A stretch of DNA of 61,423 nt from an uncultured Rickettsiales bacterium (GTDB lineage: Bacteria > Pseudomonadota > Alphaproteobacteria > Rickettsiales > SXRF01), in NCBI GenBank assembly GCA_964624555.1, contig CAZUXB010000001.1, positions 1 through 61,423 on the forward strand. The letters run 5' to 3'. Shown here piece by piece: positions 9,834-45,924 of this stretch (position 1 is the first letter of the stretch; the number at the start of each line of letters is the position of its first letter). A program made the position numbers and the translations under genes. The notes below the pieces were generated by a model. The model did no database searches. It saw only the letters and a program-made list of their open reading frames with translations, and had not been told where the DNA came from.

Positions 9834-12369
9834 TCACAATCCTGTTCGGTACAACGATGACCTTGTTTATGGTTTTGCCTTTGAGCAGTTCGCTGATGGC
9901 AGGAACAGCAAGCGCCTCTTCCTCCGCCAGTTTCTTATCTGCATCTTTAGGCAATTCGACAGTCGCCCGTAATTTTCCATTTATTTGTATAGCAATCGTG
10001 ATGCTATCGTCAACGAGCCATTTGCTATCAGCTACCGGCCACGGCCTGTCAGCTATCATATCCTTGTTACCAAGCCGCTGCCATAATTCTTCGGAAATAT
10101 GTGGCATAAAAGGATTTATAAGATGGATAGCGGCGATGATAGCTTCAAGGCGCACCTCTTTCGTAGCGGCAGTAAGCGGAGTATCTTCCACCATGTTGGT
10201 AAGTTCGCGGATACGGGCGATGGCCTTGTTGAAATGGAATTTTTGCAAGTCATCGGTAACGGCAGCGATGGTTTTGTTTGTTGCTTTACGTAAGTTATCA
10301 GTCGTCGGTTGTCGGTTGTCGGTTTTTTCTTCTGACAACTGACCACTGACCACTGACGACTGAACTAAGCGCCACAGACGATTGATATACCGCCACGCCC
10401 CTTCAATACCAGCATCGGTCCATTCCAGATCACGCTCTGGCGGGCTGTCGGAAAGCATGAACAGGCGCGCAGCATCCACACCATAGGTTTCGATGATGTG
10501 GCGCGGGTCGATGGTATTTTTCTTCGACTTGCTCATCTTCTCAATGCGGCCAACAACCACTTCCTTACCGGTAGAAATTTCTACCAGCTTGCCCATATCA
10601 TTTTTAGTAATCTCGTCCGGCGTTACCCATTTGCCTTCGGCATTTTTATAAGTCTCATGCGAGATCATGCCCTGTGTTTCAAGGCGTTTGAACGGTTCTT
10701 CGAGCGCAAGCAAACCACATTTTTTCAGGGCACGGGTGAAGAAGCGCGAATAAAGCAGATGCAACACCGCATGCTCAATGCCGCCGATATAGCAATCCAC
10801 GCCATCTTTGAGCCAGTAATCAAGAACGGTTTTCTCCAGTGGCTCTGCACTCGGCAATGTCGCATAGCGCAGAAAATACCATGATGATTCGAAGAAGGTA
10901 TCGAACGTGTCGGTTTCGCGGCGCGCGGCTTTACTACATTTCGGGCAGCTTACATTTTTCCAGGTCGGGTGATGCTCCAGAGGATTTCCCGGCTTGTCGA
11001 ATTTCACATCTTTCGGCAGCTCGACCGGCAAATCTTTTTCCGGTACCGGAACGGTTCCGCAAGTTTCGCAGTGGATAATAGGTATCGGACAACCCCAGTA
11101 GCGCTGGCGGGAAATACCCCAGTCGCGCAGGCGGTAATTTATTTTTTCCTTGCCAGCGCCAATTTTTTCCAGTTCGACAATGGCTTTTTTCTTTGCAGCG
11201 TCAACCGGCAAACCATTTAGGAAATGCGAGTTAATGGCAACGCCATCGCCGGTATAAGGCAGCGGCTCATCGGTGTTGCCTGCACTCACTACCGGAAGTA
11301 TCGGCAGGTGATATTTGCTGGCAAAATCAAAGTCGCGCTGGTCATGCGCCGGGCAGCCGAATATCGCGCCGGTACCGTAATCCATCAACACGAAATTAGC
11401 AATGAACAGCGGCACTTCGCGCTCTTCAAATGGATGCTTTATTTTGAGCCCGGTATCGAAACCTTTTTTCTCGGCCTTTTCGATGGCTTCCTCGCTGGTG
11501 CCGAGTTGGTTGCATTCAGCAATGAAAGTTGCTAGTTGCTGGTTGCCAGTTGCTAGTGAAGTAGATATCGGATGGTTCGCGGCAATGGCGCAGAATGACA
11601 TGCCGAAGATGGTATCTGGTCGCGTGGTATAGATATCCAGATATTCTTCTTTGCCGGAAATTTTAAGGCGCAAACTCGCACCACTGGATTTCCCTATCCA
11701 GCGATCCTGCATAATGCGCACTTTATCCGGCCATTCTTTGAGCGTGTTGAGTCCGGCGAGCAAGTCGTCAGCGAAATCAGAAATGCGCAGGAACCACTGC
11801 GAAAGCTTGCGGCGCTCGACCAGTGCGCCACTGCGCCAGCCCCTGCCCTCTATCACCTGCTCATTGGCGAGCACGGTTTGGTCGACCGGGTCCCAGTTCA
11901 CTTCCGCTTCTTTGCGATAGGCCAAACCATTCTGCAGAAATTTCAGGAAGAATAATTGTTCGTGCTTGTAATATTCGGGCAGGCAGGTGGCCAGTTCGCG
12001 CGACCAGTCATAAGAAAGTCCGATAAGCTTTAATTGCTCACGCATGGTATCGATGTTGGCCAGTGTCCAGGTTTCCGGATGGGAATTATTCTGGATAGCC
12101 GCATTTTCAGCAGGAAGGCCAAAAGCATCCCAGCCCATCGGATGCAACACATTATAGCCCTGTGCGCGCTTGCTACGGGCTACCACATCACCCAGCGTAT
12201 AGTTGCGCACATGCCCCATATGGATGTTGCCCGATGGATAGGGAAACATCTCCAGCACATAGTATTTAGGCTTTTTGCTTTCCGAGGTTGCGGCAAAGGT
12301 TTTGTTTTTCTGCCAATAATCCTGCCATTTGGCTTCGGTTTCGCGGAAATTATAGCGGGTTGGTTCCAT
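9817..12369 (-). CDS. leuS: Leucyl-tRNA synthetase
   Basis: 850 aa. HIGH-type motif GNIHMGHVRNY, KMSKSKKN, and an editing-domain insertion. Confidence 0.97.
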   Translation of the reverse strand: MEPTRYNFRETEAKWQDYWQKNKTFAATSESKKPKYYVLEMFPYPSGNIHMGHVRNYTLGDVVARSKRAQGYNVLHPMGWDAFGLPAENAAIQNNSHPETWTLANIDTMREQLKLIGLSYDWSRELATCLPEYYKHEQLFFLKFLQNGLAYRKEAEVNWDPVDQTVLANEQVIEGRGWRSGALVERRKLSQWFLRISDFADDLLAGLNTLKEWPDKVRIMQDRWIGKSSGASLRLKISGKEEYLDIYTTRPDTIFGMSFCAIAANHPISTSLATGNQQLATFIAECNQLGTSEEAIEKAEKKGFDTGLKIKHPFEEREVPLFIANFVLMDYGTGAIFGCPAHDQRDFDFASKYHLPILPVVSAGNTDEPLPYTGDGVAINSHFLNGLPVDAAKKKAIVELEKIGAGKEKINYRLRDWGISRQRYWGCPIPIIHCETCGTVPVPEKDLPVELPKDVKFDKPGNPLEHHPTWKNVSCPKCSKAARRETDTFDTFFESSWYFLRYATLPSAEPLEKTVLDYWLKDGVDCYIGGIEHAVLHLLYSRFFTRALKKCGLLALEEPFKRLETQGMISHETYKNAEGKWVTPDEITKNDMGKLVEISTGKEVVVGRIEKMSKSKKNTIDPRHIIETYGVDAARLFMLSDSPPERDLEWTDAGIEGAWRYINRLWRLVQSSVVSGQLSEEKTDNRQPTTDNLRKATNKTIAAVTDDLQKFHFNKAIARIRELTNMVEDTPLTAATKEVRLEAIIAAIHLINPFMPHISEELWQRLGNKDMIADRPWPVADSKWLVDDSITIAIQINGKLRATVELPKDADKKLAEEEALAVPAISELLKGKTINKVIVVPNRIVNVVIA
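10298..10363. repeat. Short-period hairpin element, in frame inside leuS
   Basis: Left arm TCAGTCGTC(GGTTGTC)x2GGTT, 8-nt loop, right arm TGACAACTGACCACTGACCACTGACGACTGA. The outer 9 bp pair perfectly and the rest pairs with G:T wobbles. Translated as SSVVSGQLSEEKTDNRQPTTDN. Confidence 0.85.
11528..11558. repeat. Four tandem degenerate heptamers (GTTGCNN) inside leuS
   Basis: GTTGCTA GTTGCTG GTTGCCA GTTGCTA GTG, translated on the minus strand as LATGNQQLAT. Resembles the arm of the 27185-27250 hairpin. No inverted partner seen nearby. Confidence 0.7.
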
Positions 12370-12371
12370 AG

Positions 12372-12448
12372 TTAGTGGTGAGTGGTGAGTGGCAAGTGGT
12401 GAGTAATTAAATTTTTCTAATCACTTATCACTCGCTACTTACCACTAC
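12372..12448. repeat. Short-period hairpin element filling the DUF3576-leuS intergenic gap
   Basis: Left arm (AGTGGTG)x2 AGTGGCA AGTGGTG AGT. Reverse complement of the right arm is AGTGGTA AGTAGCG AGTGATA AGTGA. About 21/28 positions pair (more with G:T) around a loop of about 21 nt. Confidence 0.85.
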
Positions 12449-13048: not shown

Positions 13049-13087
13049 AAAAAAAGGGCGGTGCAAGCACCGCCCTTAATTTTTTTG
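13049..13087 (-). terminator. Rho-independent terminator downstream of the porin gene (looks bidirectional)
   Basis: A-run, stem GGGCGGTG, loop CAAG, stem CACCGCCC, then TTAATTTTTTT. Starts 14 nt beyond the porin stop codon. Confidence 0.8.
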
Positions 13088-14582: not shown

Positions 14583-15260
14583 ATGGACAACAATATAAGT
14601 ATAGAAAAAAGTCTATCAATTCTCTCTACTAACATAGAGAAAGCGCGTAAGTCATCCCCAATAGCCGCAAATGGGGTTGCCTTACTTGCCGCAAGCAAGG
14701 CACAGCCAATTGCCGTTATAGAGGAAGCAATAGGCGCTGGGGTTAGCTGTTTCGGGGAAAACCGGGTACAGGAAGCGCAGGAAAAATGGCCGGAACTGAA
14801 AAAGCGCCACCCCAGCATAACTCTACATCTAATAGGGCCGTTACAAACCAACAAGGTAAAACAGGCCCTTTCCCTGTTCGATGTTATACAGACTTTGGAC
14901 AGGCCACAGCTTGCCGAAGAGATAGCAAGGCTTGAGGCTTTAGGAATGAGCCTTGAGGGAAAGAAGTTCTTTATTCAAATAAATACCGGCAAAGAACCAC
15001 AGAAATCGGGAGTTTTCCCAGAAAATGCCGACTCCTTTATACATATGTGCAGGGAGCTTAAATTACCGGTAGTTGGTTTAATGTGCGTCCCCCCAGTGGA
15101 TCAGCCACCTGCCCCGCATTTTGCCCTGCTGCGCGAAATTGCCCTGAAAAACAACCTTAGCGAACTGAGCATGGGTATGAGCAGTGATTTTGAAACAGCG
15201 GTACGCATGGGCTCAAGCTGTGTACGCATCGGCACGGCACTGTTTGGCGACAGAAAATAA
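14583..15260 (+). CDS. yggS: YggS-family PLP-binding homeostasis protein
   Basis: 225 aa. Motifs LLAASKAQP, GENRVQEA, HLIGPLQTNKVK, SMGMSSDFETAVRMGSSCVRIGTALFG. Confidence 0.9.
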   Translation: MDNNISIEKSLSILSTNIEKARKSSPIAANGVALLAASKAQPIAVIEEAIGAGVSCFGENRVQEAQEKWPELKKRHPSITLHLIGPLQTNKVKQALSLFDVIQTLDRPQLAEEIARLEALGMSLEGKKFFIQINTGKEPQKSGVFPENADSFIHMCRELKLPVVGLMCVPPVDQPPAPHFALLREIALKNNLSELSMGMSSDFETAVRMGSSCVRIGTALFGDRK

Positions 15261-15427: not shown

Positions 15428-15886
15428 ATGGCAGATAAAGATTATAAAGCAGAGTTGCAGTCAAGTAATTCTAATGTTTCCTATACACTTGTGGGTAAGG
15501 TGGGAGGTAAGCCCAATACTGCGTATATTGATACCATAGTTATGCATGGGGTTGATGGCCAAGACGTAACTTATGCACCGGATAAGCCTTTCAAAGTAGA
15601 AATTACAGGTTCTGGCTTGGCACATGAAAGCGCAGATGCAGTAAACAGGCTGATGGCATTAAAAACCAATGCTAAAACGAAATATATGCCAGTCAGGTTA
15701 GTTAAGGCAGGGGATTCATCTCCATCTCCAGTAACTCTTACAGAAGTAAAATCAGGGGAAAAATTGGCATCAGCAGGAGTCGAGATCGACCCAAGAGACA
15801 GAGCTATGCTCGCGTCGCTCAGCGGCGGGCCGGATAGTTTGGTTGTGCCTAGCGCTGGTTCCACAGGCCCCAAGGGAAGAGCATAA
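15428..15886 (+). CDS. Hypothetical protein, paralog of the next ORF
   Basis: 152 aa with no signal peptide or TM segment. Shares YTL(V/A)G...(I/D)TIVMHG and (L/I)TE..SG...ASA blocks with the downstream ORF. Basic Pro/Gly C-terminus. Confidence 0.6.
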   Translation: MADKDYKAELQSSNSNVSYTLVGKVGGKPNTAYIDTIVMHGVDGQDVTYAPDKPFKVEITGSGLAHESADAVNRLMALKTNAKTKYMPVRLVKAGDSSPSPVTLTEVKSGEKLASAGVEIDPRDRAMLASLSGGPDSLVVPSAGSTGPKGRA

Positions 15887-15889: not shown

Positions 15890-16612
15890 ATGGCTGATCT
15901 TGATGGCAAAGCTACAGCCGCTGAAGATATGAGGCAGATAAAGCTTTCCCGCCAAGGGCTGGGAGCTGGGCCTAAGATGTCCGGATTGACCTATAAAGAT
16001 GAAAAGCCACACGCTGGTGATAGTGATATGCCAACCGCCAGCCTGAAGCGTTCAGCATTCAACCACGACTATAAGATTGGTGGTATTACATATACTTTGG
16101 CTGGCGATAGTCCGGACAAGATAACCACCATAGTTATGCATGGCACCGCCCCTAAAAAATATGGCCTTGACAATAGAATATTCGTGGCTGAAAGGCCAAT
16201 TTCAATCCCTTTTAAGGACAGGGATGGCAGGGAATTAACAACTGCCGGAGAGGATCTGATCAGGCAGGCCACCAGCCCTGATGAATCTGGTGTAGCAAAA
16301 GTTAATGCTTTGGCTGGCGATAGTAGCTGGGGACGGTTTATGCAGGGTATCGCCAGCGTAATTCCTGCTGGTAACGACCTAAGACTTATTGCAAATCAGT
16401 GGGCCAAAACAGAAATAACAATAACTGAAAAAACATCATCAGGTAAGCCAGCATCTGCAGTACGCCTAGCTCCTGATGGTCCTATTCATGCCGCTATGGC
16501 ACAGGTTAGATCTGGAGATGCCAAGACCTTGGCAGATATGGCTGGGGAGGACGGGGCCGGAAACTACACGCCACAAGCAACAGCTAAAGATGTTCCGGGC
16601 ACTAGGCGCTAG
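15890..16612 (+). CDS. Hypothetical protein, longer paralog of the preceding ORF
   Basis: 240 aa. Starts 3 nt after the upstream stop codon. Both proteins begin with MAD. Conserved ITYTLAGDSPDKITTIVMHG block. No family recognised. Confidence 0.6.
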   Translation: MADLDGKATAAEDMRQIKLSRQGLGAGPKMSGLTYKDEKPHAGDSDMPTASLKRSAFNHDYKIGGITYTLAGDSPDKITTIVMHGTAPKKYGLDNRIFVAERPISIPFKDRDGRELTTAGEDLIRQATSPDESGVAKVNALAGDSSWGRFMQGIASVIPAGNDLRLIANQWAKTEITITEKTSSGKPASAVRLAPDGPIHAAMAQVRSGDAKTLADMAGEDGAGNYTPQATAKDVPGTRR

Positions 16613-18363: not shown

Positions 18364-19420
18364 CCCCGGCTCCACAATCGGTATTTTAGGTGGTGGACAA
18401 CTCGGAAGAATGATGGCCATAGCCGCCGCCGAAATGGGCTATAATGTTCACATCTACTGCCCGGAAAAAGACTGCCCCGCCAGCGAAGTTGCCGCATTTA
18501 CCACTGTCGGTGCGTATGATGACGTGAAGGCTCTGGAGAAATTTGCCGGAAGCGTTGATGTCATAACCTACGAATTCGAGAACATACCTTCTGATCCTAT
18601 ATTTACCATAGCTAAGGTAAAAGATATTTTCCCATCCCCAGAAATATTGGCCGTGTCCCAGCACCGTATCCTCGAAAAACAGGCGGTGAACAAGATGGGC
18701 ATAGCGACTGCGCCATTTAAGGCTGTTTCATCACACGCCGAACTGCTTGCTGCCACTAAAACCCTAGGCTTTCCGTGCATCCTTAAAACCGCAACCATGG
18801 GCTATGATGGCAAGGGGCAATTTCTGCTGCGAGGACCCGAGGACTTTAGTACTCAAGTACTCGATTTCTCAAGTCCTCTAATTCTCGAAGGCTTCGTCAA
18901 TTTCAGCATGGAGATATCAGTCATAGTCGCGCGTGGCAGGAATGGCGATATCAAATGCTACACGCCAGTGCAGAATATCCACAAACACCATATTTTGAGC
19001 GAAACCATCGCCCCCGCGCCGATATCAGAAAAACTGGCAAATGAAGCGGAGAATATCGCAAAAAAAATCGCGCTGGAATTGGGGCTGGTCGGGTTGCTTG
19101 CGATTGAAATGTTCGTGACCAATGACGAAAAAATAATTGTGAATGAAATCGCACCGCGCCCACATAATTCCGGGCATTGGACAATAGACGCCTGCGTCAC
19201 CAGCCAGTTCGAACAAGTCATCCGCGCCGTATGTGGCCTCAAACTGGGAAATCCTGCCCGCCTTTGTGATGCGCGTATGCTGAACCTGATTGGTGATGAC
19301 ATAAATGACTGGGAAAAATACACCAAAACGGAAAACGCAAAATTACATCTCTACGGCAAAAAAGAAACAAAACCCGGCCGCAAGATGGGGCATGTCACAT
19401 TTTTAGGCAGTAGTGAATAG
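18356..19420 (+). CDS. purK: N5-CAIR synthetase PurK
   Basis: 354 aa ATP-grasp protein. Motifs [28 protein letters not shown]. Overlaps purE by 8 nt. Confidence 0.93.
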
Positions 19421-19480
19421 GCATTAGGCCATAGTGATTTTATCTTTACCAATGCCTACTGCCCACTGCCTATTGCCTAA
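19403..19480. repeat. Short-period hairpin element between convergent purK and cobS
   Basis: Left arm TTAGGCA GTAGTGA ATAGGCA TTAGGCC ATAGTG. Reverse complement of the right arm is TTAGGCA ATAGGCA GTGGGCA GTAGGCA TTGG. About 21/30 positions match. The arms cover both stop codons. Confidence 0.8.
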
Positions 19481-20529
19481 ATCTCATTCAAATTCTTATT
19501 GAAACAACGCTGGTAATATTCGTTTATTATCGGGCGTTCGCTCTCATCGCATTTATTGTAGAAGGTCATAATGAATGAGCTGTGCACATCATCGAATATC
19601 ACCAGGTTTTCGGCCCAGTTGATAACGGTGCGTGGCGACATGACGGTGGAAAGGTCGCCAGCCATGAAGCCTTCGCGAGTGAGATTGGCCATCGCCACCA
19701 TGCTGCCTAAATATTCGCGCTGTTTCGGTGTCATGCCTTTAACGCGTGAATTGATAATTTTAAACTCAACATCCTTGGTCAGGTAATTGAGACTGGTCAC
19801 GATATTCCAGCGGTCCATCTGGCCCTGGTTTATCGGCTGGGTACCGTGATAGAGACCAGTGGAATCACCCAAACCGATAGTATTGGAAGTCGCAAAAATA
19901 CGGAAATAAGGGTGCGGGGTGATAACCTTGTTCTGGTCAAGCAGTGTGAGCTTGCCCTGCGCTTCAAGCACGCGCTGGATAACAAACATCACGTCCGCCC
20001 TGCCCGCATCGTACTCATCGAATACCAGCGCCATCGGCCGTCCCAGTGCCCACGGCAGGATGCCTTCCTGGAAATGGGTTATCTGCTTGTCGTCTTTAAG
20101 GCTTATCACATCGCGGCCGATAAGGTCGGTACGGCTGATATGGCTATCAAGGTTAATACGCACCAGCGGCCAGTTCAGACGCGCCGCCACCTGCTCGATA
20201 TGTGTCGATTTACCGGTACCGTGGAAACCCTGCACCAGCACGCGACGATTATGCACGAAACCGGCGAGAATCGCGCGCGTAGCATTAGGCTCGAAATAAT
20301 AATCGGGATCCATATCGGGAACATGCTCGGTCCTATGGGAAAATGCCGGTATCGCACCGTTCCACTTAACACCGAAAACCTTCTCGGCAGAAACTGTCTT
20401 GTCCGGGGTTTCCGCAGCAAATCGTTCAATCATCATCGTTTTTGTCATTGGTTTGGTACTGGTCATCTTACAATAGCTTATATTGGTTAAGGAAGCCTTG
20501 CAGGATACACATTTTTGCTCACTCTGCAA
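19477..20529 (-). CDS. cobS: CobS-like AAA+ ATPase
   Basis: Motifs VLVQGFHGTGKSTHIEQVAARLNWPLVRINLDSH...LVFDEYDAGR. The true start is probably the internal ATG near 20466 (MTSTKP...). Confidence 0.85.
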   Translation of the reverse strand: MQSEQKCVSCKASLTNISYCKMTSTKPMTKTMMIERFAAETPDKTVSAEKVFGVKWNGAIPAFSHRTEHVPDMDPDYYFEPNATRAILAGFVHNRRVLVQGFHGTGKSTHIEQVAARLNWPLVRINLDSHISRTDLIGRDVISLKDDKQITHFQEGILPWALGRPMALVFDEYDAGRADVMFVIQRVLEAQGKLTLLDQNKVITPHPYFRIFATSNTIGLGDSTGLYHGTQPINQGQMDRWNIVTSLNYLTKDVEFKIINSRVKGMTPKQREYLGSMVAMANLTREGFMAGDLSTVMSPRTVINWAENLVIFDDVHSSFIMTFYNKCDESERPIINEYYQRCFNKNLNEI

Positions 20530-21654: not shown

Positions 21655-21655
21655 T

Positions 21656-21842: not shown

Positions 21843-22880
21843 ATGATAAAAATGAGGAACATCCAATTGGATAAACTTGCCCCCCCGTCAACTTTAGGTT
21901 GCAGTGCCAAGGGCGTCATTGCGAGGCGTAGCCGAAGCAATCCATTACCAGAATGCGGCAGCACCTGGATTGCTTCACCTGCGGTTCGCAATGACGGAAG
22001 CAATGGTTTTACACTCATAGAGTTAAGTATAGTGCTGGTTATCATCGGCCTGATAGTGGGTGGCGTACTGGTTGGCAGGGATCTCATAGCCAGCTCATCT
22101 CTTAGAGCACAAATTGGACAGCTTGAAAAATACACAACTGCCATAATGGCTTTTCAATCTAAGTATAATGGCTTACCCGGAGATATCAAAAATGCTACTG
22201 ATTTTGGCTTTAAAAATAGAGGGACAAGCCGTGGTCAGGGTGACGGAAATGGTATTTTGGAAGGCGATAGCACAGCAGGTTTTGGCAACACTGGCTATGC
22301 ACAATTTATAGGCCTGACATCTGAAAATGTACTTGTATGGACTGATCTTTCAGATGCTAAGTTAATAGATGGAGCTTTCTCTAACCCGACAAATGTTTAC
22401 ACCACAATGCCTGGAACCTATCTCCCGACGGCAAAAATAGGCAACAATAATTTTATATACACTTTCAGTGGTGGTTATAATTCATCAGCACCCAATGGAT
22501 TAAATTACTTCGGGCTCGGCAGAATTAACTATATGGATAGTGGTGTTGATTTTACCGCAACGGCAGGTTTAAGTGTATATCAAGCTTCATATCTTGATGA
22601 AAAAATAGATGATGGGCTTCCACAATCAGGAAAAACCATGGCTTTTCATGTTGTACTGGGTTCACCTAAATGGGCTAATGGCAGCAAAACAATCGTAGGC
22701 CCGATGACATGGCAAAGCACATCCGGTGCAAATAATGCCGCAGATAATGGCCCCACAACTACCGCTACCCCATCCTCAACTACAACATGCTATGATAATA
22801 ATAATGTGGTGGCTAACCAACAATATTCAAAAACCGCTGGTCTTAATTTGATAAACTGCGCATTATCATTTAGATTCTGA
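21843..22880 (+). CDS. Prepilin-type N-terminal cleavage/methylation domain protein (pseudopilin or type IV pilin-like)
   Basis: Motif G-FTLIELSIVLVIIGLIVGGVL (Gly-1, Phe+1, Glu+5) at residues 54-76. Only the far-upstream ATG is in frame, giving an unusually long leader. The start is uncertain. Confidence 0.7.
   Translation: MIKMRNIQLDKLAPPSTLGCSAKGVIARRSRSNPLPECGSTWIASPAVRNDGSNGFTLIELSIVLVIIGLIVGGVLVGRDLIASSSLRAQIGQLEKYTTAIMAFQSKYNGLPGDIKNATDFGFKNRGTSRGQGDGNGILEGDSTAGFGNTGYAQFIGLTSENVLVWTDLSDAKLIDGAFSNPTNVYTTMPGTYLPTAKIGNNNFIYTFSGGYNSSAPNGLNYFGLGRINYMDSGVDFTATAGLSVYQASYLDEKIDDGLPQSGKTMAFHVVLGSPKWANGSKTIVGPMTWQSTSGANNAADNGPTTTATPSSTTTCYDNNNVVANQQYSKTAGLNLINCALSFRF
21914..21996. repeat. Palindromic element (CGTCATTGCGA...GAAGCAATCC / GGATTGCTTC...TCGCAATGACG) within the prepilin leader region
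   Basis: 30-nt arms match at the outer 11 and inner 10 positions around a 23-nt centre. Read through in frame as VIARRSRSNPLPECGSTWIASPAVRNDG. Confidence 0.8.
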
Positions 22881-22956: not shown

Positions 22957-24141
22957 TTACCTATCAATCTCCCCAAACACCACGTCCATGGTGCCGATGA
23001 TGGCGACCACATCGGCAAGCATGTGGCCTTTGCTCATCATTTCCAGTGCCTGTAAGTGCGCGAAGCCGGGAGCTTTTATCTTGCAGCGGTAGGGTTTGTT
23101 GGTGCCGTCAGCCACTAAGTACACACCGAACTCGCCTTTCGGCGCTTCCACGGCAGTGTAGGTTTCGCCGACCGGCACGTGGTAGCCTTCGCTGTAGAGT
23201 TTGAAATGGTGGATGAGCGCTTCCATCGATTGCTTCATGAGGGCGCGTTTCGGCGGCGCGATCTTCGGGTCGCCGGTAACCACCGGCCCTTCCGGCATCT
23301 GCTCCACGCACTGGCGGATTATTTTCATGGACTGGCGCATTTCTTCCATGCGCACGAGGTAGCGGTCATAACAGTCGCCATTCTTGCCGATGGGTATGTC
23401 GAAATCTAGCTTATCATAGCAATCATAAGGCTGGGCCTTGCGCAAATCCCACGCTATGCCGGAACCACGCAGCATTGCGCCGGAAAAACCCCAATCCTGC
23501 GCCTGTTTGGCGGTAACCACGCCGATATCCACGAGGCGCTGTTTGAAGATGCGGTTCTCGGACAGGAGGTCGTCCACGTCATCGACATATTTCTTAAAAC
23601 CATCGACAAATTTGAGCACGTCTTCATTGAGGCCGCGCGGTATATCCTGATGCACCCCACCCGGGCGGATGTACGCCGAGTGGAAGCGCGCGCCCGATGC
23701 GCGCTCATAAAATTCGATGATCTTTTCGCGCTCTTCAAAGAGCCATAATAGCGGTGTCATTGCCCCAATATCAAGAGCTTGCGTGGTGATGTTAAGAATA
23801 TGGTTTAAGAGCCGGGTGAGCTCGCAGAACATCACGCGGATGTATTGGGCACGCAGAGGCACCTCGCAACCAAGCAGCTTTTCCACCGCCAGCGAGTAGC
23901 AATGTTCCTGCGCCATGGGGGACACGTAATCAAGCCGGTCGAAATAGGGCAGCGCCTGCAAATAGGTCTTATGTTCTATTAACTTTTCGGTGCCGCGATG
24001 GAGCAGGCCGACATGCGGGTCGGCGCGTTCGATCACCTCCCCGTCCATCTCAAGCACAAGGCGAAGTACGCCATGCGCCGCAGGGTGCTGGGGGCCGAAG
24101 TTTAATGTTGTGGTGGTTTTTTGGTTTGCTTCTTGGGTCAT
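22957..24141 (-). CDS. nuoD: NADH-quinone oxidoreductase subunit D
   Basis: 394 aa. Motifs [15 protein letters not shown], and the C-terminal end ...DVVFGEIDR. Confidence 0.97.
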
Positions 24142-24143
24142 AG

Positions 24144-24551
24144 TTAAACTGGTGTTAGTGTGGGTGTGAGTGTTGGTGTATAAGTATCTAATTTCTTCTC
24201 AAGGGCATTAAATAATCCGCCCAGCAGCCTTCCAATTTCATTACTTACGTCCATAATAGATAAATACGTCGCTTCGTCAATATAACCAAGTCGTTTTGCT
24301 ATAATAATTTGCGTCTCGACTTCAGCAAGTGAGCCTTGAGATATGCCTACAAAGCGCATGTACTCTTTAGTGGTGTGCCTTTTACTACCCTCTGCTATAT
24401 TGGAAGGGACAGATATAACTGCTCTACATAGCTGGTCTATCAGCCTGTATTGCTCTTTTTTAGGAAAGTTATCAGTAATTCTATAAATCATTTCTACCAA
24501 AACCATCGACTGCTGCCAAACTTTCAAATCCTGATAACTTTTTACCATCAC
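24144..24551 (-). CDS. Four-helix-bundle protein, 23S rRNA intervening-sequence protein family (Avd-like)
   Basis: Motifs [49 protein letters not shown]. The likely ATG start is at 24548. The C-terminal [11 protein letters not shown] tail is encoded by the repeat arm. Confidence 0.85.
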
Positions 24552-24579
24552 TCACACCCCCACCAGCACTCACACTACC
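24151..24579. repeat. Inverted-repeat-bounded cassette carrying a four-helix-bundle gene (cassette 1)
   Basis: Left arm 24151-24180 is G/T-only, built of about 6-nt units. Right arm 24549-24579 is CACTCA CACCCC CACCAG CACTCA CACTAC C. Positions 24165-24179 pair with 24561-24575 at 14/15. Confidence 0.8.
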
Positions 24580-25124
24580 TAAAGAAACCTATGCATTATA
24601 TAAACATCGACCAGACCCTCGCTGATATGGTCGAAGCCTTTAGGGATGGTACCTACGATCTTGAAACCAATGGATTTCCACAGATCGACCGCGACCTTGT
24701 TGATGCTCACCACAAAGTTAAACTGCATGGCGAGGTAGCCTTTGGAGCGGGCGAAATCAAGCGCGGCATGGCCGAGCGCGCGGGCGATGCCCATGCGCCG
24801 GCAATCAGGATGCACAAGGAAGGAGGCATTGGCGACATGGTGACCACGGCCAGTGCGGTTCGGGCGAACAGCAGCTATCCCTGCCACTTTCCCGTCAATA
24901 TCCGCAACCAGACAATGGGTTCCAGGCGCCGTCATCAGGTAGGCCATCGAACGGTCCGGAGTCATTTCCTCCAGCGTGTAGGAATAGGTTTTGCCTTCGA
25001 TAAGGACATTGCGGAAAATATCGTATATCTCCTCGAAATCCTCCAGACGCGCCGGACGTATGTTGTAAGATGGGTGCGGTTTGGAATTGGGATTCTGGAT
25101 AAAGAATTTGGCAAGCTTCATCAT
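24579..25124 (-). CDS. GNAT-family N-acetyltransferase
   Basis: 181 aa. Acetyl-CoA site motif RRMGIARALGHAALDFARSKGY. Block NFVVSINKVAVDLWKSIGFKIVGTIP resembles phosphinothricin/MSX-type GNATs. Confidence 0.8.
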   Translation of the reverse strand: MMKLAKFFIQNPNSKPHPSYNIRPARLEDFEEIYDIFRNVLIEGKTYSYTLEEMTPDRSMAYLMTAPGTHCLVADIDGKVAGIAAVRPNRTGRGHHVANASFLVHPDCRRMGIARALGHAALDFARSKGYLAMQFNFVVSINKVAVDLWKSIGFKIVGTIPKGFDHISEGLVDVYIMHRFL

Positions 25125-25697
25125 TTAACTGGCCTTCTCATCACCGGGCAGATGGGTCATGCCTTCCCACGGGCTCATATAATCAAAACTGCGGTAAGCC
25201 TGGTTGAGCTTTACCGGCTCATAGACCACGCGCTTCTGCTCCACGTCATAGCGCATTTCGACGTAACCGGTAAGTGGGAAATCCTTGCGCTGCGGATGGC
25301 CTTCAAAACCGTAATCGGTAAGGATACGGCGCAAATCGGGATGCTCGGAAAATAAGATGCCGTACATGTCCCACGCCTCGCGCTCATACCAACCAGCCGA
25401 AGAAAATATACCAACCACCGAAGGTATTGGGGTTTTCTCATCGGTGCAAACACGTACCCGCACACGCATATTCTGTCTTAAACTAAGAAGTAAATAAACT
25501 GCTTCAAACCTTTGTTCTCGCTCAGGAAAATCAACTCCGGCAATGTCGACAAGCTGGGTGAACTGAGTATCCTGCGAATCGCGCAAAGCAGTAAGCAAAG
25601 GCAACAGTTTGTCACCTTTCACGTTTATCACCTGCTCGTCCCGGATGGTCTCGACAGTAGCGCCAAAACCTTCCAGCCATTTATCTTCAAATATCAT
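25125..25697 (-). CDS. nuoC: NADH-quinone oxidoreductase subunit C
   Basis: 190 aa. Motifs [40 protein letters not shown]. Confidence 0.93.
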
Positions 25698-25703
25698 ATA
25701 ACC

Positions 25704-27184: not shown

Positions 27185-27250
27185 ATTACTTAGTTACTTG
27201 TTACCAGTTGCCAGTGTTATATAACCGGTAACTAGTATCCAGTAACTAAT
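27185..27250. repeat. Short-period hairpin element in the nuoA/queG divergent intergenic region
   Basis: Left arm ..CTTAGTTAC TTGTTAC CAGTTGC CAGTG. Reverse complement of the right arm is ATTAGTTAC TGGATAC TAGTTAC CGG. Pairing needs register slips and is the weakest in the family. Confidence 0.55.
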
Positions 27251-30809: not shown

Positions 30810-31230
30810 GACGTAAATCGTAAGACGTATTAAGAATCTTTTTCCGTTAAAGAATTTCTTAAGCGATAAAGCATACGGCTGATATCTTCTGCCAAGTTAA
30901 GCATCTCCTGATAAATATTTTCAGCCATATAATTGCGTTGATATGCTAAAATGATCTGCGTCTCCAGCTCTGCCAGAGAGCCGTGCGCAATTTCACAGAA
31001 ACGCCTATAATCGGCTTTACTGCCACGAATACTTCCTTCAGCTATATTTGATGCAATAGACACAGCCGCCCCTTGCATCTGATTAGCCAGTGCATAAACT
31101 TCATTTTTGGGGAACTGTGACGTAGCATCGTAAATTTTATTAGCAAGCAGAATGGCTTTATTCCAGACATCGAGTTGCCGATAATTTTTAAAAGCCATAT
31201 TTTAGCCGCCTTACGTCTTACGATTTACGT
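30806..31230. repeat. Inverted-repeat-bounded cassette carrying a four-helix-bundle gene (cassette 2)
   Basis: Left arm is GTAAGAC GTAAATC GTAAGAC GTA (30806-30829). ACGTAAATCGTAAGACGTA is the perfect 19-nt reverse complement of TACGTCTTACGATTTACGT in the right arm (31210-31230). Confidence 0.9.
30830..31198 (-). CDS. Four-helix-bundle protein, 23S rRNA intervening-sequence protein family (Avd-like)
   Basis: 122 aa. Motifs YRQLDVWNKA, FPKNEVYALANQMQGAAVSIASNIAEGS, GSLAELETQIILA. I estimate roughly one third identity to the 24144-24551 protein. Confidence 0.85.
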   Translation of the reverse strand: MAFKNYRQLDVWNKAILLANKIYDATSQFPKNEVYALANQMQGAAVSIASNIAEGSIRGSKADYRRFCEIAHGSLAELETQIILAYQRNYMAENIYQEMLNLAEDISRMLYRLRNSLTEKDS

Positions 31231-31240
31231 TCTACATCCC

Positions 31241-34761: not shown

Positions 34762-35979
34762 ATGCCTCTGAAAACTATATATAACTATAATTTTGCAAAA
34801 GCACCTAATAATAACGTTTTCCGTGAGCAATTTTTTGCCCGAACCCTGACGCTGGCTGACCTCAAAATCATCCATGATTATCTACAACAAAAAAGCATAA
34901 ATATCGCCGGGTATAATATTCCCGCCGCTATTCACCTTAAAAGCCACGAACAAAGCAACCTGATGCCGCTTGTTGTGCTGGCGCAGCTACATGGTAACGA
35001 ACCGGCTGGCCTTGCCGGTATTGCCCTCGCCATCGCACTGTCTGAAGCGGGCCTGCTGAAGCGTGACGTTATCGGGATTATTGGCAATCCTCTGGCCGCA
35101 AAACAATATTTCACAGCATGGGAAAAAGCTCCAACCGCAAGGCAGGAAACACGCGATGCTTTCCGCTGCGGCCTGGACGAAAACGGGAATCTGCTGCCCG
35201 ATGGCAACCGTATTCCCATTGATTTCATGACACGTACCGACAACAGCGCACATACCATGCGCGCACGCGAATTATGGCATCTCGGCCAGAATATTTCCGG
35301 GATACTGGATATACATTCTGCCCGCGGCAACATGACCTGCATCACCGACCATAAAAATGACCGCGACCTGCAATACAGCCCAATAAGGGCCGTCCTTACC
35401 GAGCTTGCTGAAGCAATTTCTGCCAATTCTTCGGGAAACGTAACTGTACAAACCTTAAAAACCATTCTCCACCCGCTGCCCAACCTCGCCTGCCAGACCG
35501 GCATTGAAGCTGGCCGCCATGAAGACCCGAATGCGCCATATATGGCCGCTGCCTTCACGCTCGCCACCTTATATAAGCAGGGCATAACCGATATAAAACC
35601 ACTCGCAAGCAATGATGATGGAGTTTTTAAACGCTATAGCGTACAGCCGCGGATAACCTATGCTGATTTAATTCATGATGGTGTGTTGCAACCGGGCGAT
35701 GAAATATACATGGCACATGAAAACAACGGGAAGATAGAAAATTACCAGTATGATGAAATGCAGGAAATCAGCAAAGGACAGGTAGTCGCAATTGCAAGGC
35801 CGTCCGGTGTTGTGTTTCGCGCCCCTTCAGATTTTTCCGGGATATTTTTCAGTAAGCCCGGCGCCCTTTACGATAAAGACCCAGCAGTAGGTCCATGGCC
35901 CTTTTACGCCGAAAAGCTTCAAACTGTGAAATTCTGTTATCCATGCCTGGTAACAGATATGAAGGTTGATTTTTCCTGA
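34762..35979 (+). CDS. Succinylglutamate desuccinylase/aspartoacylase-family zinc hydrolase (AstE-like, long form)
   Basis: 405 aa. M14-type LHGNEPAG zinc motif and DIHSA. Start codon lies 2 bp from the divergent astB start. Confidence 0.65.
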   Translation: MPLKTIYNYNFAKAPNNNVFREQFFARTLTLADLKIIHDYLQQKSINIAGYNIPAAIHLKSHEQSNLMPLVVLAQLHGNEPAGLAGIALAIALSEAGLLKRDVIGIIGNPLAAKQYFTAWEKAPTARQETRDAFRCGLDENGNLLPDGNRIPIDFMTRTDNSAHTMRARELWHLGQNISGILDIHSARGNMTCITDHKNDRDLQYSPIRAVLTELAEAISANSSGNVTVQTLKTILHPLPNLACQTGIEAGRHEDPNAPYMAAAFTLATLYKQGITDIKPLASNDDGVFKRYSVQPRITYADLIHDGVLQPGDEIYMAHENNGKIENYQYDEMQEISKGQVVAIARPSGVVFRAPSDFSGIFFSKPGALYDKDPAVGPWPFYAEKLQTVKFCYPCLVTDMKVDFS

Positions 35980-37501
35980 TGTAAACCGTTGCCACTTCAT
36001 CATGGTAGACCTGCATCCAGCTATCGCGGTACAAACCTTTATCGTAATCTTTGACAAAACCACGGCCATTACCCAGCAGAAGCACATCAATATGATATGG
36101 CTCTAAAATTTTTTGCCAGTCTTTCTCAAGCTCAACGAAGGCAAGATAATCAATCATGATATTTTCGGTGTAAACGGTACCGGCACGCCCATCCAGGAAC
36201 ACAGGAAAACTTCCCCTGGTTTCATAAATTATCCGGCCGCCAAAATTCCAGTCATTCAGAACGTGTGCTCCACGATAGCGATCCTTAACATAATTAACTG
36301 CCGGCATTGGTGATTCTTTGGCATGTTCCAGATAATGCTCTGTCCCCAGAACAGGAAGTAAAAAATAACTGCCGAGCAAAACTACAGGAGCCAAAACAGC
36401 TGCGGCCGGGGAAAATTTTTTATTGTTGATCCAGACAGATATCTTACGGGTATTGCTGTCTTTCTGGTTATCTGCCGGTAAATTCAATGCAATGTAGGGA
36501 GCGCCCAGAACCGAGAGGAATCCTATATTCCTTACGGAAAAAAACATGGCAACCAAACAGATAACGGCCAGCACCTTATCAGCGACCAGTATTCTGCTGT
36601 CCCTGAAATTACCGAAAATCACAAACACCAGCAACCACAGCGAAGGCCCCATGAAACTACCAAAAACAAATGGCTGCCATTCAAAAACATATTTAACTAT
36701 AACACTACCCATAGTTCGTAAAACCCCGGTAATAACATGTAGACCGTAGGGATTTACCAGTATTGCCAGAGCACATAAAATGCTAATCTGAAAGAGTTTT
36801 ATAAACCATTCATTGCCAGCAAGTTCTTTAATCAACAAAACGGCAGTAATTTTATTTTCCCCGGCACGTAATTTCAGCGCAGTAATAGTGCTATAAATTA
36901 CTTCTACCCCATAGGCACCGATAACTATAAAACCCACAAAGAAGCTGCCATGAATATTCACCCATAACATCATCAAGAATGGTAAGGCACCAATTTTCCA
37001 CGTCATATGATCACTACGGCTGGTATAAAGGATATTATAAAAGAAAAATGCCAGGAACATGGCAATTATCTGCGGCCTTCCGGTAGCAAATTCCAGCATG
37101 CTGTAAGTAGCTATCATCCCGGTAAAAATAAGCGCATTTATACCGATGCCACCACGTTTTTGCAGACCAGCAATGAGCAACGCCACCAGTAAAGCCGGTA
37201 GTGCGTTGGCAAACACAAATAGCCCCTGAATCCCAACCTTATCATGCACATAAGATAGGACAATATCCCATAGCCAGGATAGATTGTACCATGTCTGGTC
37301 GCTACCGGAAAAAGACCAGACATCGCGTGCGGGAATACCGCCAATATTGCGGATCAAGTCGCCAGCCGCAATATGCCAGCCCATGTCCGGGTCTTGCAAA
37401 ATAGGCGCCCCATTACTGTAAACAGTGATAAAGCTGACTATAAATGCTAACAGGACCAAAGGTGTCGGCAGGTATTTTTGCAATTTTTCCATTTTATTCA
37501 A
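35849..37501 (-). CDS. Polytopic membrane protein of unknown function (GT-C-like topology)
   Basis: 550 aa. About 11 hydrophobic segments followed by a soluble C-terminal domain of about 150 aa. N-terminal DPDMGWHIAAGD loop. No family assigned with confidence. Confidence 0.55.
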   Translation of the reverse strand: MNKMEKLQKYLPTPLVLLAFIVSFITVYSNGAPILQDPDMGWHIAAGDLIRNIGGIPARDVWSFSGSDQTWYNLSWLWDIVLSYVHDKVGIQGLFVFANALPALLVALLIAGLQKRGGIGINALIFTGMIATYSMLEFATGRPQIIAMFLAFFFYNILYTSRSDHMTWKIGALPFLMMLWVNIHGSFFVGFIVIGAYGVEVIYSTITALKLRAGENKITAVLLIKELAGNEWFIKLFQISILCALAILVNPYGLHVITGVLRTMGSVIVKYVFEWQPFVFGSFMGPSLWLLVFVIFGNFRDSRILVADKVLAVICLVAMFFSVRNIGFLSVLGAPYIALNLPADNQKDSNTRKISVWINNKKFSPAAAVLAPVVLLGSYFLLPVLGTEHYLEHAKESPMPAVNYVKDRYRGAHVLNDWNFGGRIIYETRGSFPVFLDGRAGTVYTENIMIDYLAFVELEKDWQKILEPYHIDVLLLGNGRGFVKDYDKGLYRDSWMQVYHDEVATVYIRKNQPSYLLPGMDNRISQFEAFRRKRAMDLLLGLYRKGRRAY

Positions 37502-43617: not shown

Positions 43618-43716
43618 GTATTCACTTCCTGTGATATGTTATAGTTATAACGACTAGTATCATTTTAGCACAGGTTAATTAAAAATTAGTTAAACAGATG
43701 ATGGGTTTTACGTCAC

Positions 43717-45924
43717 CTACGCCATATAATCCGGCAGCCAGCTTTCGTTAACCTTTCTGAGTTCTCTAACCTCTACCGAACTTCCAGCAACGCTAAGTTT
43801 TCCGGCTTCGGTTTTACCAATAACAACTGCTGTAACACCAACAGTTTTTGCAGCCTTAATTATATCCGAAGCATCTTTAGCGGTTAGAATATAGCGGCCC
43901 TGATCTTCACCAAACCAAAAAGCGACATCTCCAGTAACAGTTATATTTGCTCCTATTCCATCCCGGTATGTCATCTCAGCAATGGCGACAAGCAGGCCAC
44001 CATCGGACACATCATGGCAGGCAGTTATTTTGCCAGCCTGAATCAGCGAGCGCACGAAATCGCCATTGGCACGTTCGGCTTTTAGGTCAACCGGTGGCGG
44101 AGCGCCCTCTTCACGGCCTAAGATTTCGCGCAGGTAAAGGGATGCTCCCAAATGGCCTTTAGTTTCGCCAATAACGATGATATCTTCACCAGTAGCAACA
44201 AAGCTGTTTCCGACACGTTTTGTAACATCTTTGAGAATTCCCACGCCGCCGATGGCCGGAGTCGGGAAAATCGCTACACCATTGGTTTCGTTATAGAGCG
44301 ACACATTGCCAGAGATAATCGGGTAATCCAGCGCCCGGCACGCTTCCGCCATACCCTGCAAACACCCTACTATCTGACCCATAATTTCCGGCTTCTGCGG
44401 GTTGCCGAAATTCAGGCAGTTGGTGATGGCCAGTGGCGTGCCACCCACGGCGGTGATGTTGCGCCATGTTTCGGCTACAGCCTGCTTGCCGCCTTCGATG
44501 GGGTCGGCGTAGCAATAGCGTGGTGTGCAGTCGGTAGTTATCGCAAGCGCCTTGTTCGTGCCATGCACACGCACTATTGCACTGTCACCACCGCTACGCG
44601 CAACCGTATCATTACCAACCTGAGAATCATACTGTTCGTATATCCAACGCTTCGATGCGAGGTCGGGACATTGGATTAAGGTTAACAATGCAGTTGTCAG
44701 CGGTCGGTTGTCAGCGGTCAGGAAAGCTTTTTCTGATCGCTGATCGCTGACCGCTGACCGCTTAATTTCATACGGCCTGTCATACACCGGTGCGTCGGTG
44801 GATACTGGCGCTATCGGCATGTCGGCAACCGTTTCGCCATTCATTTTCAGCACAATATTTCCGGTGTCGGTGATTTTTCCGATGGTGGCAAAGGCCAGTT
44901 CCCATTTTTCAAACACCTTGCGTGCAATATGCTCTTTTTCCGGTTTTATTACCATGAGCATGCGTTCCTGCGATTCGGAAAGCATGATTTCATACGGCGT
45001 CATTCCGGTTTCGCGCATCGGCACTTTATCAAGCCACATCTCAATGCCGGTGCCGCCCTTCCCCGCCATTTCCAACGACGATGAAGTGAGGCCCGCCGCG
45101 CCCATATCCTGAATGGCGAGAATAGTGTCTGTCTGCATCAGTTCGAGGCAGGCTTCGATGAGAAGTTTTTCTGTGAATGGATCGCCCACCTGCACGGTCG
45201 GGCGTTTTTCTTCCGACGCATCGTCGAATTCAGCGGAGGCCATGGTCGCACCGTGAATACCGTCGCGCCCGGTCTTGGAACCGACATAGACCACGCTGTT
45301 GCCAACACCGGCAGCTGCCGAGTAAAATATCTTGTCCGTCTGCGCGATACCAACGGTCATGGCGTTGACCAGAATATTTCCGTTATAGGAGGAATGGAAA
45401 TTGCACTCGCCACCAACGGTTGGAACACCAACGCAATTACCGTAGCTGCCAATTCCAGCAACCACGCCGGAGAGCAGATGTTTGGTTTTCGGGTGCGATG
45501 GGTCGCCAAATCGCAGCGCGTTCATATTCGCAATAGGGCGCGCGCCCATAGTGAACACGTCGCGCAGAATTCCGCCCACGCCGGTAGCAGCACCCTGGAA
45601 CGGTTCGATGTAGGATGGGTGATTGTGCGATTCCATTTTAAATATCGCCGCCTGCCCGTCACCGATATCAATGACACCAGCATTTTCACCGGGGCCGCAA
45701 ATGACCCACGGCGCTTCGGTAGGCAGGCCGCGCAGGAGCTCGTGCGCGATTGTATAGGAGCAATGCTCACTCCACATCACCGAGAAAATACCAAGCTCGA
45801 CAAGGTTCGGTTCGCGACCCAATGTTTTCAGCACACGCTGGTATTCCTCGGGCGTTAATCCATGTTGGGCAACGATTTCATCAGTGATTTTTTGTGTGGT
45901 TTTTTTTGCAGTAGCGCTTTGCAT
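43717..45924 (-). CDS. purL: Phosphoribosylformylglycinamidine synthase subunit PurL
   Basis: 735 aa. Motifs SEHCSY, ESHNHPS, and duplicated AIR-synthase-like domains. Confidence 0.95.
44691..44761. repeat. Short-period hairpin element, in frame inside purL
   Basis: Left arm GTTGTCA GCGGTCG GTTGTCA GCGGTCA GG. Reverse complement of the right arm is (GCGGTCA)x2 (GCGATCA)x2 G. Several pairing registers are possible. Translated as [22 protein letters not shown]. Confidence 0.85.

Follow-up and report, generated by a model that had tools for sequence, protein, structure and literature searches.

Hairpins with heptamer-array arms, with and without S23p genes, in an uncultured alphaproteobacterial clade

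We analyzed a 61,423-nt stretch of DNA from an uncultured Rickettsiales bacterium (contig CAZUXB010000001.1; here called the window), in which a preliminary description had picked out nine loci as hairpins with arms of short, degenerate tandem units. All nine are present at the same coordinates, which confirms the observation, while its interpretation was partly supported. The arms are arrays of 3–8 imperfect 7-nt units (sometimes 6 or 8 nt), the G-rich arm comes first on whichever strand the locus is read, and the two loci with a gene in the loop both encode S23p, the four-helix-bundle "23S rRNA intervening sequence protein" (PF05635/TIGR02436). The best explanation is that these loci are the alphaproteobacterial counterpart of the short tandemly repeated repetitive (STRR) hairpins of cyanobacteria and of the convergent GGGAATC pairs of Xanthomonas. 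We lean, though not strongly, towards treating them as a single element class, STRR-like palindromic cassettes with or without S23p, which slippage and arm homogenisation would maintain and whose transcript stems would be of the RNase III type.

A strict scan for periodicity found 6 period-7 arrays in the window against a mean of 0.025 and a maximum of 1 in 200 dinucleotide shuffles; the other lags from 4 to 11 gave 0–1 arrays each. With a full detector, which requires a periodic arm with a reverse-complement partner within 700 nt, 7 paired loci were seen and none in 100 shuffles. Seven of the 11 longest inverted repeats in the window (arms at most 600 nt apart) are these same loci (I1, I2, I5, I6, I7, I8 and I11). 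Tandem Repeats Finder (TRF) reported period 7 at 10304, 10332, 11527, 12374, 19453, 30805 and 44733, period 6/12 at 24151, and period 8 at 27178, 28949 and 29037; two of the loci have 8-nt units and one has 6-nt units. When seven of the hairpins were folded as RNA the z-scores ranged from -2.8 to -6.5, and the mismatches were evenly spaced at about one per unit.

The arms also share a polarity. In the window every 5' arm has more G than C except that at 27185, where the two are equal, and every 3' arm has more C than G. The arms had been described as C-poor on the 5' side and G-poor on the 3' side; this stands as a tendency, the terms being relative only (the 5' arm at 10298 has 5 C in 27 nt). 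Across the clade to which the window belongs, 40 hairpins combine G>C in the 5' arm with C>G in the 3' arm and 2 show the opposite, both of these being mis-pairings of neighboring hairpins; one architectural family with a fixed polarity, as first proposed, is borne out. The AT skew of the arms has no polarity (20 vs 19), and for this reason C-to-T deamination of an exposed 5' arm was rejected as the cause.

The paired loci lie in or next to housekeeping genes (leuS, a DUF3576 lipoprotein gene, purE/purK, a CobS-like ATPase gene, the nuo operon, queG, an O-methyltransferase gene, recJ, a short-chain dehydrogenase/reductase (SDR) gene and purL); those between genes span their spacers completely and those within genes are in frame, at permissive loops of the encoded protein. 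The hairpin at 12370–12447 (minus strand; units AGTGGTG; fold z -6.5) takes up the entire DUF3576–leuS spacer: its first unit contains the DUF3576 stop codon (12445–12447), the leuS ATG (12369) comes after its last unit, and no Shine-Dalgarno sequence is present. Between the convergent purK and CobS-like genes, the hairpin at 19402–19481 (no strand assigned; units TAGGCAK; z -5.2) supplies both stop codons: each gene terminates on a TAG triplet of the TAGGCA units (19418–19420 and 19477–19479), and the 5' arm holds three TAGs, one per reading frame. The divergent nuoA/queG spacer is occupied by a hairpin at 27185–27250 (no strand assigned; units AGTTRCY; arms 27190–27215 and 27224–27249; z -5.0). 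Between the O-methyltransferase gene and recJ, 8-nt units (AGATGAYN) form a hairpin at 28949–29065 (no strand assigned; arms 28949–28984 and 29034–29065; loop ~50 nt; z -4.9), whose right arm overlies the non-conserved first ~12 codons of the annotated recJ ORF; RecJ homology begins at residue 15.

Inside leuS, a hairpin at 10298–10363 (minus strand; codons 669–691) has arms at 10298–10324 and 10337–10363, a 12-nt loop and units CAGTSGT/GGTTGTC (z -3.7), and falls in the variable linker of LeuS. It belongs to one unit family with the hairpin inside purL at 44687–44767 (minus strand; codons 388–412; units CAGYKGT/GCGGTCA; z -5.9); both are in frame. A second leuS array, at 11523–11557 (minus strand; AGTTGCY x4.4; codons 271–283), has no remaining partner arm: the best partner score was 15, inside the null range, in agreement with its first description as a single arm. 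Units of the AGTTRCY type found at 27185–27250 recur in this array and in hairpins of the relatives L003, L009 and L016 (labels of the L001–L159 type denote fetched genomic loci of relatives and homologues). A palindrome inside purK at 18827–18890 (plus strand), overlooked at first, is a probable extra member: it is loop-free, with 32-nt arms of 8-nt units (GAGGACYY / AGTACTCA) that are 72% complementary, a TRF period of 8/16 and the weakest fold of the set (z -2.8).

The remaining two loci are cassettes that enclose S23p genes. Cassette 1 (24147–24569, minus strand) lies in the nuo operon between a GNAT acetyltransferase gene and nuoD; its gene occupies ~24147–24545 and its arms (24152–24188 and 24533–24569; units GTGTGR/GTGAGTG) are 37 nt long and 76% complementary in the inverted-repeat scan. 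It is the 3' arm that encodes the protein's C-terminal tail, and the stop codon of S23p stands 2 nt ahead of the nuoD ATG. Cassette 2 (30806–31235, minus strand; gene 30830–31198) has 24-nt arms (30806–30829 and 31212–31235; units GTAAGAC/GTAAATC) that are 92% complementary in the same scan; it sits downstream of the SDR gene, and the recJ stop codon (30807–30809) lies inside its outer arm. Both proteins match PF05635 clearly (E = 1e-38 for cassette 1 and 3.6e-37 for cassette 2), and the closest solved structure to the S23p of cassette 2 is XCC0516 of Xanthomonas campestris (PDB 2GSC, E = 7e-20). Against the model NF033474 for Avd, the accessory protein of diversity-generating retroelements (DGRs), S23p scores a weak 31–40 bits, below the cut-off of 80.

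The pairing of S23p genes with inverted periodic arms extends well beyond the window. In the clade it was seen for 9 of 9 S23p genes, including the one carried by each of L004 and L005, and also in L124 and L130. Altogether, 32 S23p genes were examined, from the clade, cyanobacteria, Bacteroidota and other groups, and ~25 of them lie between inverted heptamer arrays of the same polarity; the sample consists of the best homologues of one query and includes related cassettes, and therefore these counts are indicative rather than independent. The S23p homologues sit within conserved operons, at flgF–flgG, guaB–guaA and cas1–cas2 junctions, in the gap between two PAPS-reductase genes, and downstream of an SDR gene. 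Beside them stand arrays, among others (TTCGTAR)n, (TAGCTAG)n, (GTTGAGR)n and (GAGTTGC)n, and the complementary array lies opposite. The SDR-downstream cassette of L141, with GTAAGTG arms, is the orthologue of cassette 2. In cassettes with inverted arms the 5' arm is always the G-rich one, also in other phyla, and S23p has the orientation of its upstream neighbor in 25 of 28 annotated cases. Conversely, every true long-loop hairpin in the clade carries S23p. Long-loop candidates with other genes (three in L011, and those in L001 and L004) were rejected as mis-paired neighboring hairpins or in-gene pairs.

We also searched 72,556 plasmids with tblastn. S23p was found in 31 records, 24 of them cyanobacterial and mostly from Nostocales, the home of the STRR repeats. 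Among the 20 plasmid S23p genes read, 14 have inverted periodic arms that score above every one of 100 shuffles and 19 have at least one adjoining array. The arms are (TAGGGAG)8 ... (CTCCCTA)5 in a Nostoc edaphicum plasmid, (CAGGAGT)n in N. punctiforme, (GGGTGTA)n in Calothrix brevissima and (GGGAAAA)n in Nostoc ATCC 53789; further S23p genes with inverted arms occur in plasmids of Azospirillum and Riemerella and in a cmr2–cmr3 spacer of Picosynechococcus. In two of the exceptional cases, the gamma plasmid of Nostoc PCC 7120 (L155) and a plasmid of Nostoc HK-01 (L157), an ISL3-family transposase gene directly upstream of S23p replaces the 5' side; only the 3' (CTYCTGCC)n array is retained, and ACTTCAAACTT direct repeats stand in place of the 5' arm. 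Two plasmids, those of Pseudanabaena galeata (L137) and Gemmatirosa (L138), are exceptions to the palindromic rule, the arrays that flank S23p being direct rather than inverted; in Pseudanabaena, (AAAGCTA)n lies upstream of the gene, (AAAGCCA)n lies downstream, and the arrays extend over more than 100 nt.

Several S23p genes lie inside CRISPR-cas operons (L122 5001–5354, L134, L137 and L159), namely between cas1 and cas2, twice between cas6 and cas4, and between cmr2 and cmr3, and all of them adjoin heptamer or octamer arrays. This arrangement agrees better with a promiscuous cassette that rides in operons than with a Cas function. The presence of S23p in cas operons has been noticed before, without explanation (PMC3936711). 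A supplementary table on the GGGAATC repeats of Xanthomonas (PMC4692102) likewise places an array between bccP (XCC0517) and XCC0516 that overlaps the start of XCC0516, a point on which its authors do not comment. Within the open-access literature, subscription papers being outside the scope of the search, we found no published link between S23p and heptamer repeats or STRRs, and the general association appears to be undescribed.

By LeuS the window falls in an uncultured alphaproteobacterial clade, whose best relatives (metagenome-assembled genomes labelled Rickettsiales or Alphaproteobacteria bacterium) share ~80% amino acid identity. Together, the window and 25 clade loci (463 kb) contain 49 periodic-arm hairpins, or 1.06 per 10 kb, as compared with 9 detector matches in 1.05 Mb from 55 other alphaproteobacteria (~0.09 per 10 kb), all of them GC-rich low-complexity sequence. 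The preliminary description had given each locus a private sequence, which is an overstatement. The words CGGTTGTC, CCAGTTGC and GTGAGTG do recur between the loci, as it had reported, and the units fall into related families that are met repeatedly in different genomes: CAGTKGT, AGTGGTG, AGTTGCY, TAGGCAK and TTCGTAR, together with two 8-mers, GAATTGAR and AGATGAYN. When consensus units were clustered, 18 hairpins from 13 genomes joined one AGTGGTN-like continuum, and the GAATTGAR octamer hairpin was found in 8 copies from 4 genomes. As a continuum of related families, the units extend across loci, across genomes and even across phyla: the "ttgtcagttgtcag" repeat of Nostoc PCC 7120, present there in ~44 copies, has the CAGTTGT unit seen in the window (PMC2408588).

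Empty and gene-carrying hairpins share units as well, which supports the earlier suggestion that they belong together. The empty hairpin at 28949 in the window and the S23p cassette of L004 have the same 8-mer unit type. On the N. punctiforme plasmid pNPUN01, an empty (CAGGAGT)n hairpin (960–1089) lies 500 nt from an S23p cassette (1555–2003) with the same unit, and an empty (GGCAGRR)n hairpin has a unit that belongs to another S23p subfamily.

Comparison of relatives shows how the elements change. A RecJ scan of metagenomes, made to find strain-level relatives, returned nothing closer to the window than 73% amino acid identity, and therefore the pairs L004/L005 and L015/L016 were used to assess polymorphism. 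Slippage, one of the origins first suggested, does contribute: among six contigs in which both the S23p gene and its flanks are identical, some have 5 TAGCTAG units and others 4. The unit families also evolve in concert. In the orthologous cassettes of L120 and L142 most units of both arms differ in a compensatory manner, with TTAGTAG/CTACTAA in L120 and TTCGTAG/CTACGAA in L142; similarly, cassette 2 of the window has GTAAGAC where its L141 orthologue has GTAAGTG. One S23p subfamily (50–76% identical) occupies four different sites, every copy with arms of the TTCGTRR type (TTCGTAR), while more distant S23p proteins have other arm units; over 17 cassettes, protein identity and unit distance are negatively correlated (Mantel r = -0.37, p<0.0002).

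Replacement at a fixed site was seen in both pairs. L004 and L005 are 95.5% identical over 6.9 kb, yet in the DUF3576–leuS spacer L004 has a CAGTTGT hairpin and L005 an S23p cassette whose arms consist of CGTGTTT units (the window has an AGTGGTG hairpin there), and in the leuS linker the hairpin of L004 gives way to a different palindrome in L005. L015 and L016 are 94–97% identical and differ at about eleven segments, nearly all of which are palindromic elements. In this pair, heptamer hairpins alternate at the same sites, leuS interior included, with a consensus double-hairpin element that resembles the Rickettsia palindromic elements (RPEs) and has the consensus CGTCATCCTGTGG..CACAGGATC..GATCCTGCG..CGCAGGATGAC. 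Copies of it lie in spacers and in frame in leuS (L015 1209–1325, 4400–4531, 10045–10142 and 10719–10820; L005 3336–3420), and the CGTCATCCTGTGG...CGCAGGATGAC element is found at sites that hold heptamer hairpins in close relatives. Within LeuS, heptamer arrays occur at the same three alignment regions in many clade members with units that differ from member to member: a pair that brackets the conserved TTRPDT segment, columns 704–732, and the linker before the anticodon-binding domain. Most clade members have a heptamer hairpin with other units at the columns of 10298–10363, and in L004, L005, L009, L014, L020 and L024 the homologue of the 11523–11557 array pairs with an arm ~100 nt upstream, across the TTRPDT segment.

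These properties are close to those of known heptamer repeats. The STRRs of heterocystous cyanobacteria are likewise tandem 7-nt units that form hairpins in operons and vary between close relatives (PMC2670836, PMC2408588). In Nostoc they lie, for example, between hupS and hupL, with function unknown, roles in stability or translational coupling having been suggested (PMC2670836), and pNPUN01 combines an S23p cassette and empty hairpins of the same architecture as those of the window. In Xanthomonas, ~185 GGGAATC arrays are known, 70–75 of which form inverted pairs in "convergent orientation", with differences in both length and sequence from Xcc to Xac (Rehm et al. 2015, PMC4692102); as in the window, these are over-represented G-rich heptamers, mostly between co-oriented genes, and convergent orientation amounts to the same polarity. 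Judged as STRRs or as heptameric simple sequence repeats (SSRs), the window loci show period-7 arms, convergent G-first pairs and sites that are occupied in relatives too, with variable length and sequence. The host lineage, an uncultured alphaproteobacterial clade, is neither Nostocales nor Xanthomonas. Three things are new here: the phylum, the multiplicity of unit families in a genome, and copies that lie in frame within housekeeping genes; the filling of spacers from stop to start also sets the window apart from the STRRs. In Xanthomonas a single unit that could form G-quadruplexes dominates. The unit families of the window are many and have only 1–3 G per unit, and because of this low G content quadruplex formation is not expected.

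The cassettes themselves resemble the 23S rRNA intervening sequences (IVSs) of Leptospira and Coxiella, in which an S23p ORF lies within terminal inverted repeats that form a long stem carried in the host transcript. Such S23p-bearing IVSs are stem-loops whose excision by RNase III has been shown for Coxiella and is cited for Leptospira, their origin being unknown (PMC4990558). The hosts in the window are protein-coding operons and genes (GNAT–nuoD and SDR–recJ) instead of helix 25 or 45 of 23S rRNA. A further parallel is offered by the TAACTGA arrays of Beggiatoaceae, Cyanobacteria and Bacteroidetes, whose ends lie no more than a few nt from start codons without a ribosome-binding site (RBS) and which supply stops in three frames and overlap the ends of upstream genes (MacGregor 2015, PMC4679880). 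NNACTGA is the 3'-arm unit of several hairpins here; the TAACTGA repeats, however, have one dominant unit and are almost all direct, with no inverted partner, in contrast to the paired arrays of our hairpins. None of these links, to STRRs, Xanthomonas heptamers or rRNA IVSs, had been recognised in the preliminary description.

Other palindromic families fit less well. Repetitive extragenic palindromic (REP) sequences and their REPIN doublets, and RPEs, are abundant palindromes like those of the window, and RPEs insert in frame into protein-coding genes of alphaproteobacteria. REPs and RPEs have one consensus and no tandem substructure, whereas several unit families are present here, which upholds the earlier distinction from consensus-defined families; the in-frame location of RPEs was seen, but not a consensus element of ~100–150 bp. 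REPs and REPINs are extragenic and linked to REP-associated tyrosine transposases (RAYTs), each RAYT being a single-copy gene flanked by REPs in inverted orientation. In the window, copies lie inside leuS, purL and purK and no transposase-like gene is present; S23p, unlike a RAYT, is a small helical bundle without known nuclease or transposase motifs. As for MITEs (miniature inverted-repeat transposable elements), inverted arms are present, and no direct duplication flanks the junctions read, which included no clean empty-versus-filled pair for a heptamer hairpin. The hallmarks of a DGR are absent, with no reverse transcriptase (RT) in the window and Avd scores well under the model's cut-off.

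Taken together, we propose that a complete element would be a promoter-less cassette in which arms surround an S23p gene of ~120 codons, related to DGR Avd, with the gene module of the ORF-bearing 23S rRNA IVSs; the empty hairpins may be gene-less derivatives or solo copies of cassette arms. Replication slippage would keep the arrays periodic, and hairpin-templated correction or selection would keep the arms complementary. The cassette would be transcribed with its host operon, and the stem may bring the flanking cistrons together for translation. By analogy with the rRNA IVSs, the stem is probably cut by RNase III, and such a cut would release the S23p message at little cost to the operon. 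That the G-rich arm comes first and that the entering arm holds stop codons could be the residue of selection for an element that is harmless when transcribed or translated from either side: transcription of the G-rich arm first would mean that the C-rich arm is never single-stranded, or the arm first entered by the ribosome may need C-free stop codons. Mobility of the elements we infer only from their distribution and replacement.

A number of observations weigh against this proposal. RNase III cuts within leuS, purL or purK mRNAs would be harmful. Among all window ORFs longer than 100 aa there is no RT, transposase, RAYT or integrase, and cassette excision scars and templated rewriting, two of the origins first suggested, found nothing in their support; nor were target-site duplications seen at the junctions read. 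Empty hairpins outnumber S23p genes by about 10:1, for most of the window's unit families the 61 kb contain no cognate S23p, and the limited independence of the S23p counts applies here too. The 10298 and 11523 arrays show no net length change against outgroups and therefore resemble in-place conversion rather than insertion. Finally, RNA duplex energies, compared through the G·U versus A·C asymmetry in generous windows that reached beyond the arms, gave no clear advantage to the sense strand (11 vs 6, not significant). Selection at the RNA level is thus not demonstrated, and the constraint may lie at the level of DNA, or concern both strands.

The main rival holds that the hairpins are an in-place mutational by-product of a replication bias peculiar to the lineage (7-nt slippage with intrastrand template switching), which would convert any unconstrained stretch into periodic quasi-palindromes, that nothing moves, and that S23p is an unrelated passenger or simply survives best there. 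It accounts for the in-gene arrays, which recur at the same LeuS columns in many members of the clade although the units differ, and often with length unchanged, and the unit-number polymorphism, the mutational continuum of units and the absence of a mobility gene from the window agree with it. So does the excess of heptameric SSRs seen in many bacteria, attributed to a preference of polymerase slippage for 7-nt units (an idea cited in PMC4692102). It leaves unexplained why S23p is present in the loops, and it does not account for whole-cassette replacement: genomes 95% identical have non-homologous elements at the same site, including a gained S23p cassette with other arms, one S23p subfamily keeps one arm type at four unrelated sites, and the pairing of S23p with arrays recurs in distant phyla. 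We consider this rival unlikely. The hairpins could instead be regulatory RNA structures (coupling bridges, mRNA stabilisers or processing sites, terminators) that each evolved under host selection for its own operon, as the exact stop-to-start span, the downstream gene without a Shine-Dalgarno sequence, the TAACTGA heptamers that abut RBS-less starts in Beggiatoaceae (PMC4679880) and the coupling and stability roles proposed for STRR hairpins (PMC2670836) would suggest. Yet they also occur between divergent or convergent genes and within coding regions, they have no T-tract and no sense-strand pairing bias, and their absence from close relatives or replacement there by unrelated palindromes argues against a site-specific requirement, all of which makes this reading improbable. 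An intrinsic-terminator function in particular was ruled out by the lack of T-tracts; no hairpin is among the 20 terminator-like sites of the window, where a canonical bidirectional terminator lies at 13054–13077, and an Rfam search of the window returned no family match and no rRNA.

Two further explanations invoke an enzyme encoded elsewhere. Classical non-autonomous transposable elements of the MITE or REPIN type, moved for instance by a RAYT or by a hairpin-recognising IS200/IS605-like enzyme, would explain same-site replacement, the alternation with the consensus RPE-like palindrome and the near-identity of some unit families, such as the GAATTGAR hairpins; but the families have no terminal consensus in common, the arms are too divergent for one sequence-specific transposase, no target-site duplications were seen at the junctions read, and no transposase gene was found in the 61 kb or next to the cassettes examined, so that we give this explanation very little weight. 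It is more improbable still that the arms are written by an RT, with S23p as an Avd-like cofactor that directs the synthesis of G-rich heptamers onto both 3' ends at a break or hairpin. The homology of S23p to DGR Avd (the weak NF033474 match; PMC10053308) and the G-rich strand, which runs 5' to 3' towards the center on both sides as expected of symmetric 3'-end extension, are in keeping with such writing, whereas the many units would require many templates, the Avd scores are far below the cut-off, and no RT or template/variable repeat pair lies in the window or beside any cassette examined. With the palindromic-cassette proposal preferred, a bolder extension of it may be considered, which we regard as tentative and rather doubtful: S23p would be no passenger but a trans-acting partner, probably pentameric, that binds tandem heptamers, every subfamily being paired with a unit of its own, and by which the arrays are created, spread or maintained. 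S23p and its palindromes would then be an undescribed class of mobile or self-maintaining element behind STRRs, GGGAATC repeats and ORF-bearing rRNA IVSs.

To our knowledge, neither the origin nor the function of heptamer repeats is known, although STRRs have been recognised in cyanobacteria since ~1990 and heptamers in Xanthomonas and Beggiatoaceae since 2015; we likewise know of no role for S23p, a very large family with a solved structure. If STRRs and other heptamers, S23p and the rRNA IVSs are the same element, three questions become testable in culturable organisms, Nostoc and Xanthomonas for example. There are also consequences for annotation: the hairpins supply stop codons, remove RBSs and lengthen or interrupt housekeeping proteins in frame, and because of them the turnover of intergenic regions is faster than that of the neighboring genes.

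Two further arrays in the window had also been missed at first. A degenerate array in a YggS-like gene at 14928–14958 (plus strand; period 7, AGGCTTG; 66% matches in TRF) is weak alone, and L011 has a full in-gene GAATTGAG hairpin at the matching position. A single array at 9783–9809 (minus strand; CAGGCAA, period 7) lies in the signal-peptide coding part of a lipoprotein gene that overlaps the leuS end; no partner arm was found and its membership is uncertain.

Some other features of the window deserve mention. The nuo operon (22957–27168) has three extra genes among its core subunits: a histidine-phosphatase-family gene (25704–26294) between nuoB and nuoC, and the GNAT gene (24579–25124) and the S23p gene of cassette 1 between nuoC and nuoD. 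A palindrome of a different, consensus type (CGTCATTGCGAGG...GCAATCCA / TGGATTGC...CGCAATGACG) is present at 21914–21996, with 31-nt arms that are 84% complementary, just upstream of the N-methyl (pilin-like) motif of ORF 21843–22880; a similar copy lies at L005 50–150. Between purL and an AhpC/TSA gene, the inverted repeat TCCCTCTCCCTCTGGGAGAAGG / CCATCTCCCAAAGGGAGAGGGA (45953–46077; 22 nt, 91% complementary, 81-nt loop) resembles a GGGAGAGGG palindrome in leuS of L016 (11088–11168). A non-periodic 26-nt inverted repeat at 61250–61357 (85% complementary, 56-nt loop) is located just upstream of a GDP-mannose dehydratase gene and may be a leader structure. Finally, five long ORFs gave no Pfam match, namely the overlapping pair 34762–35979 (plus) and 35849–37501 (minus), together with 8219–9238 (minus), 15428–15886 (plus) and 15890–16612 (plus).

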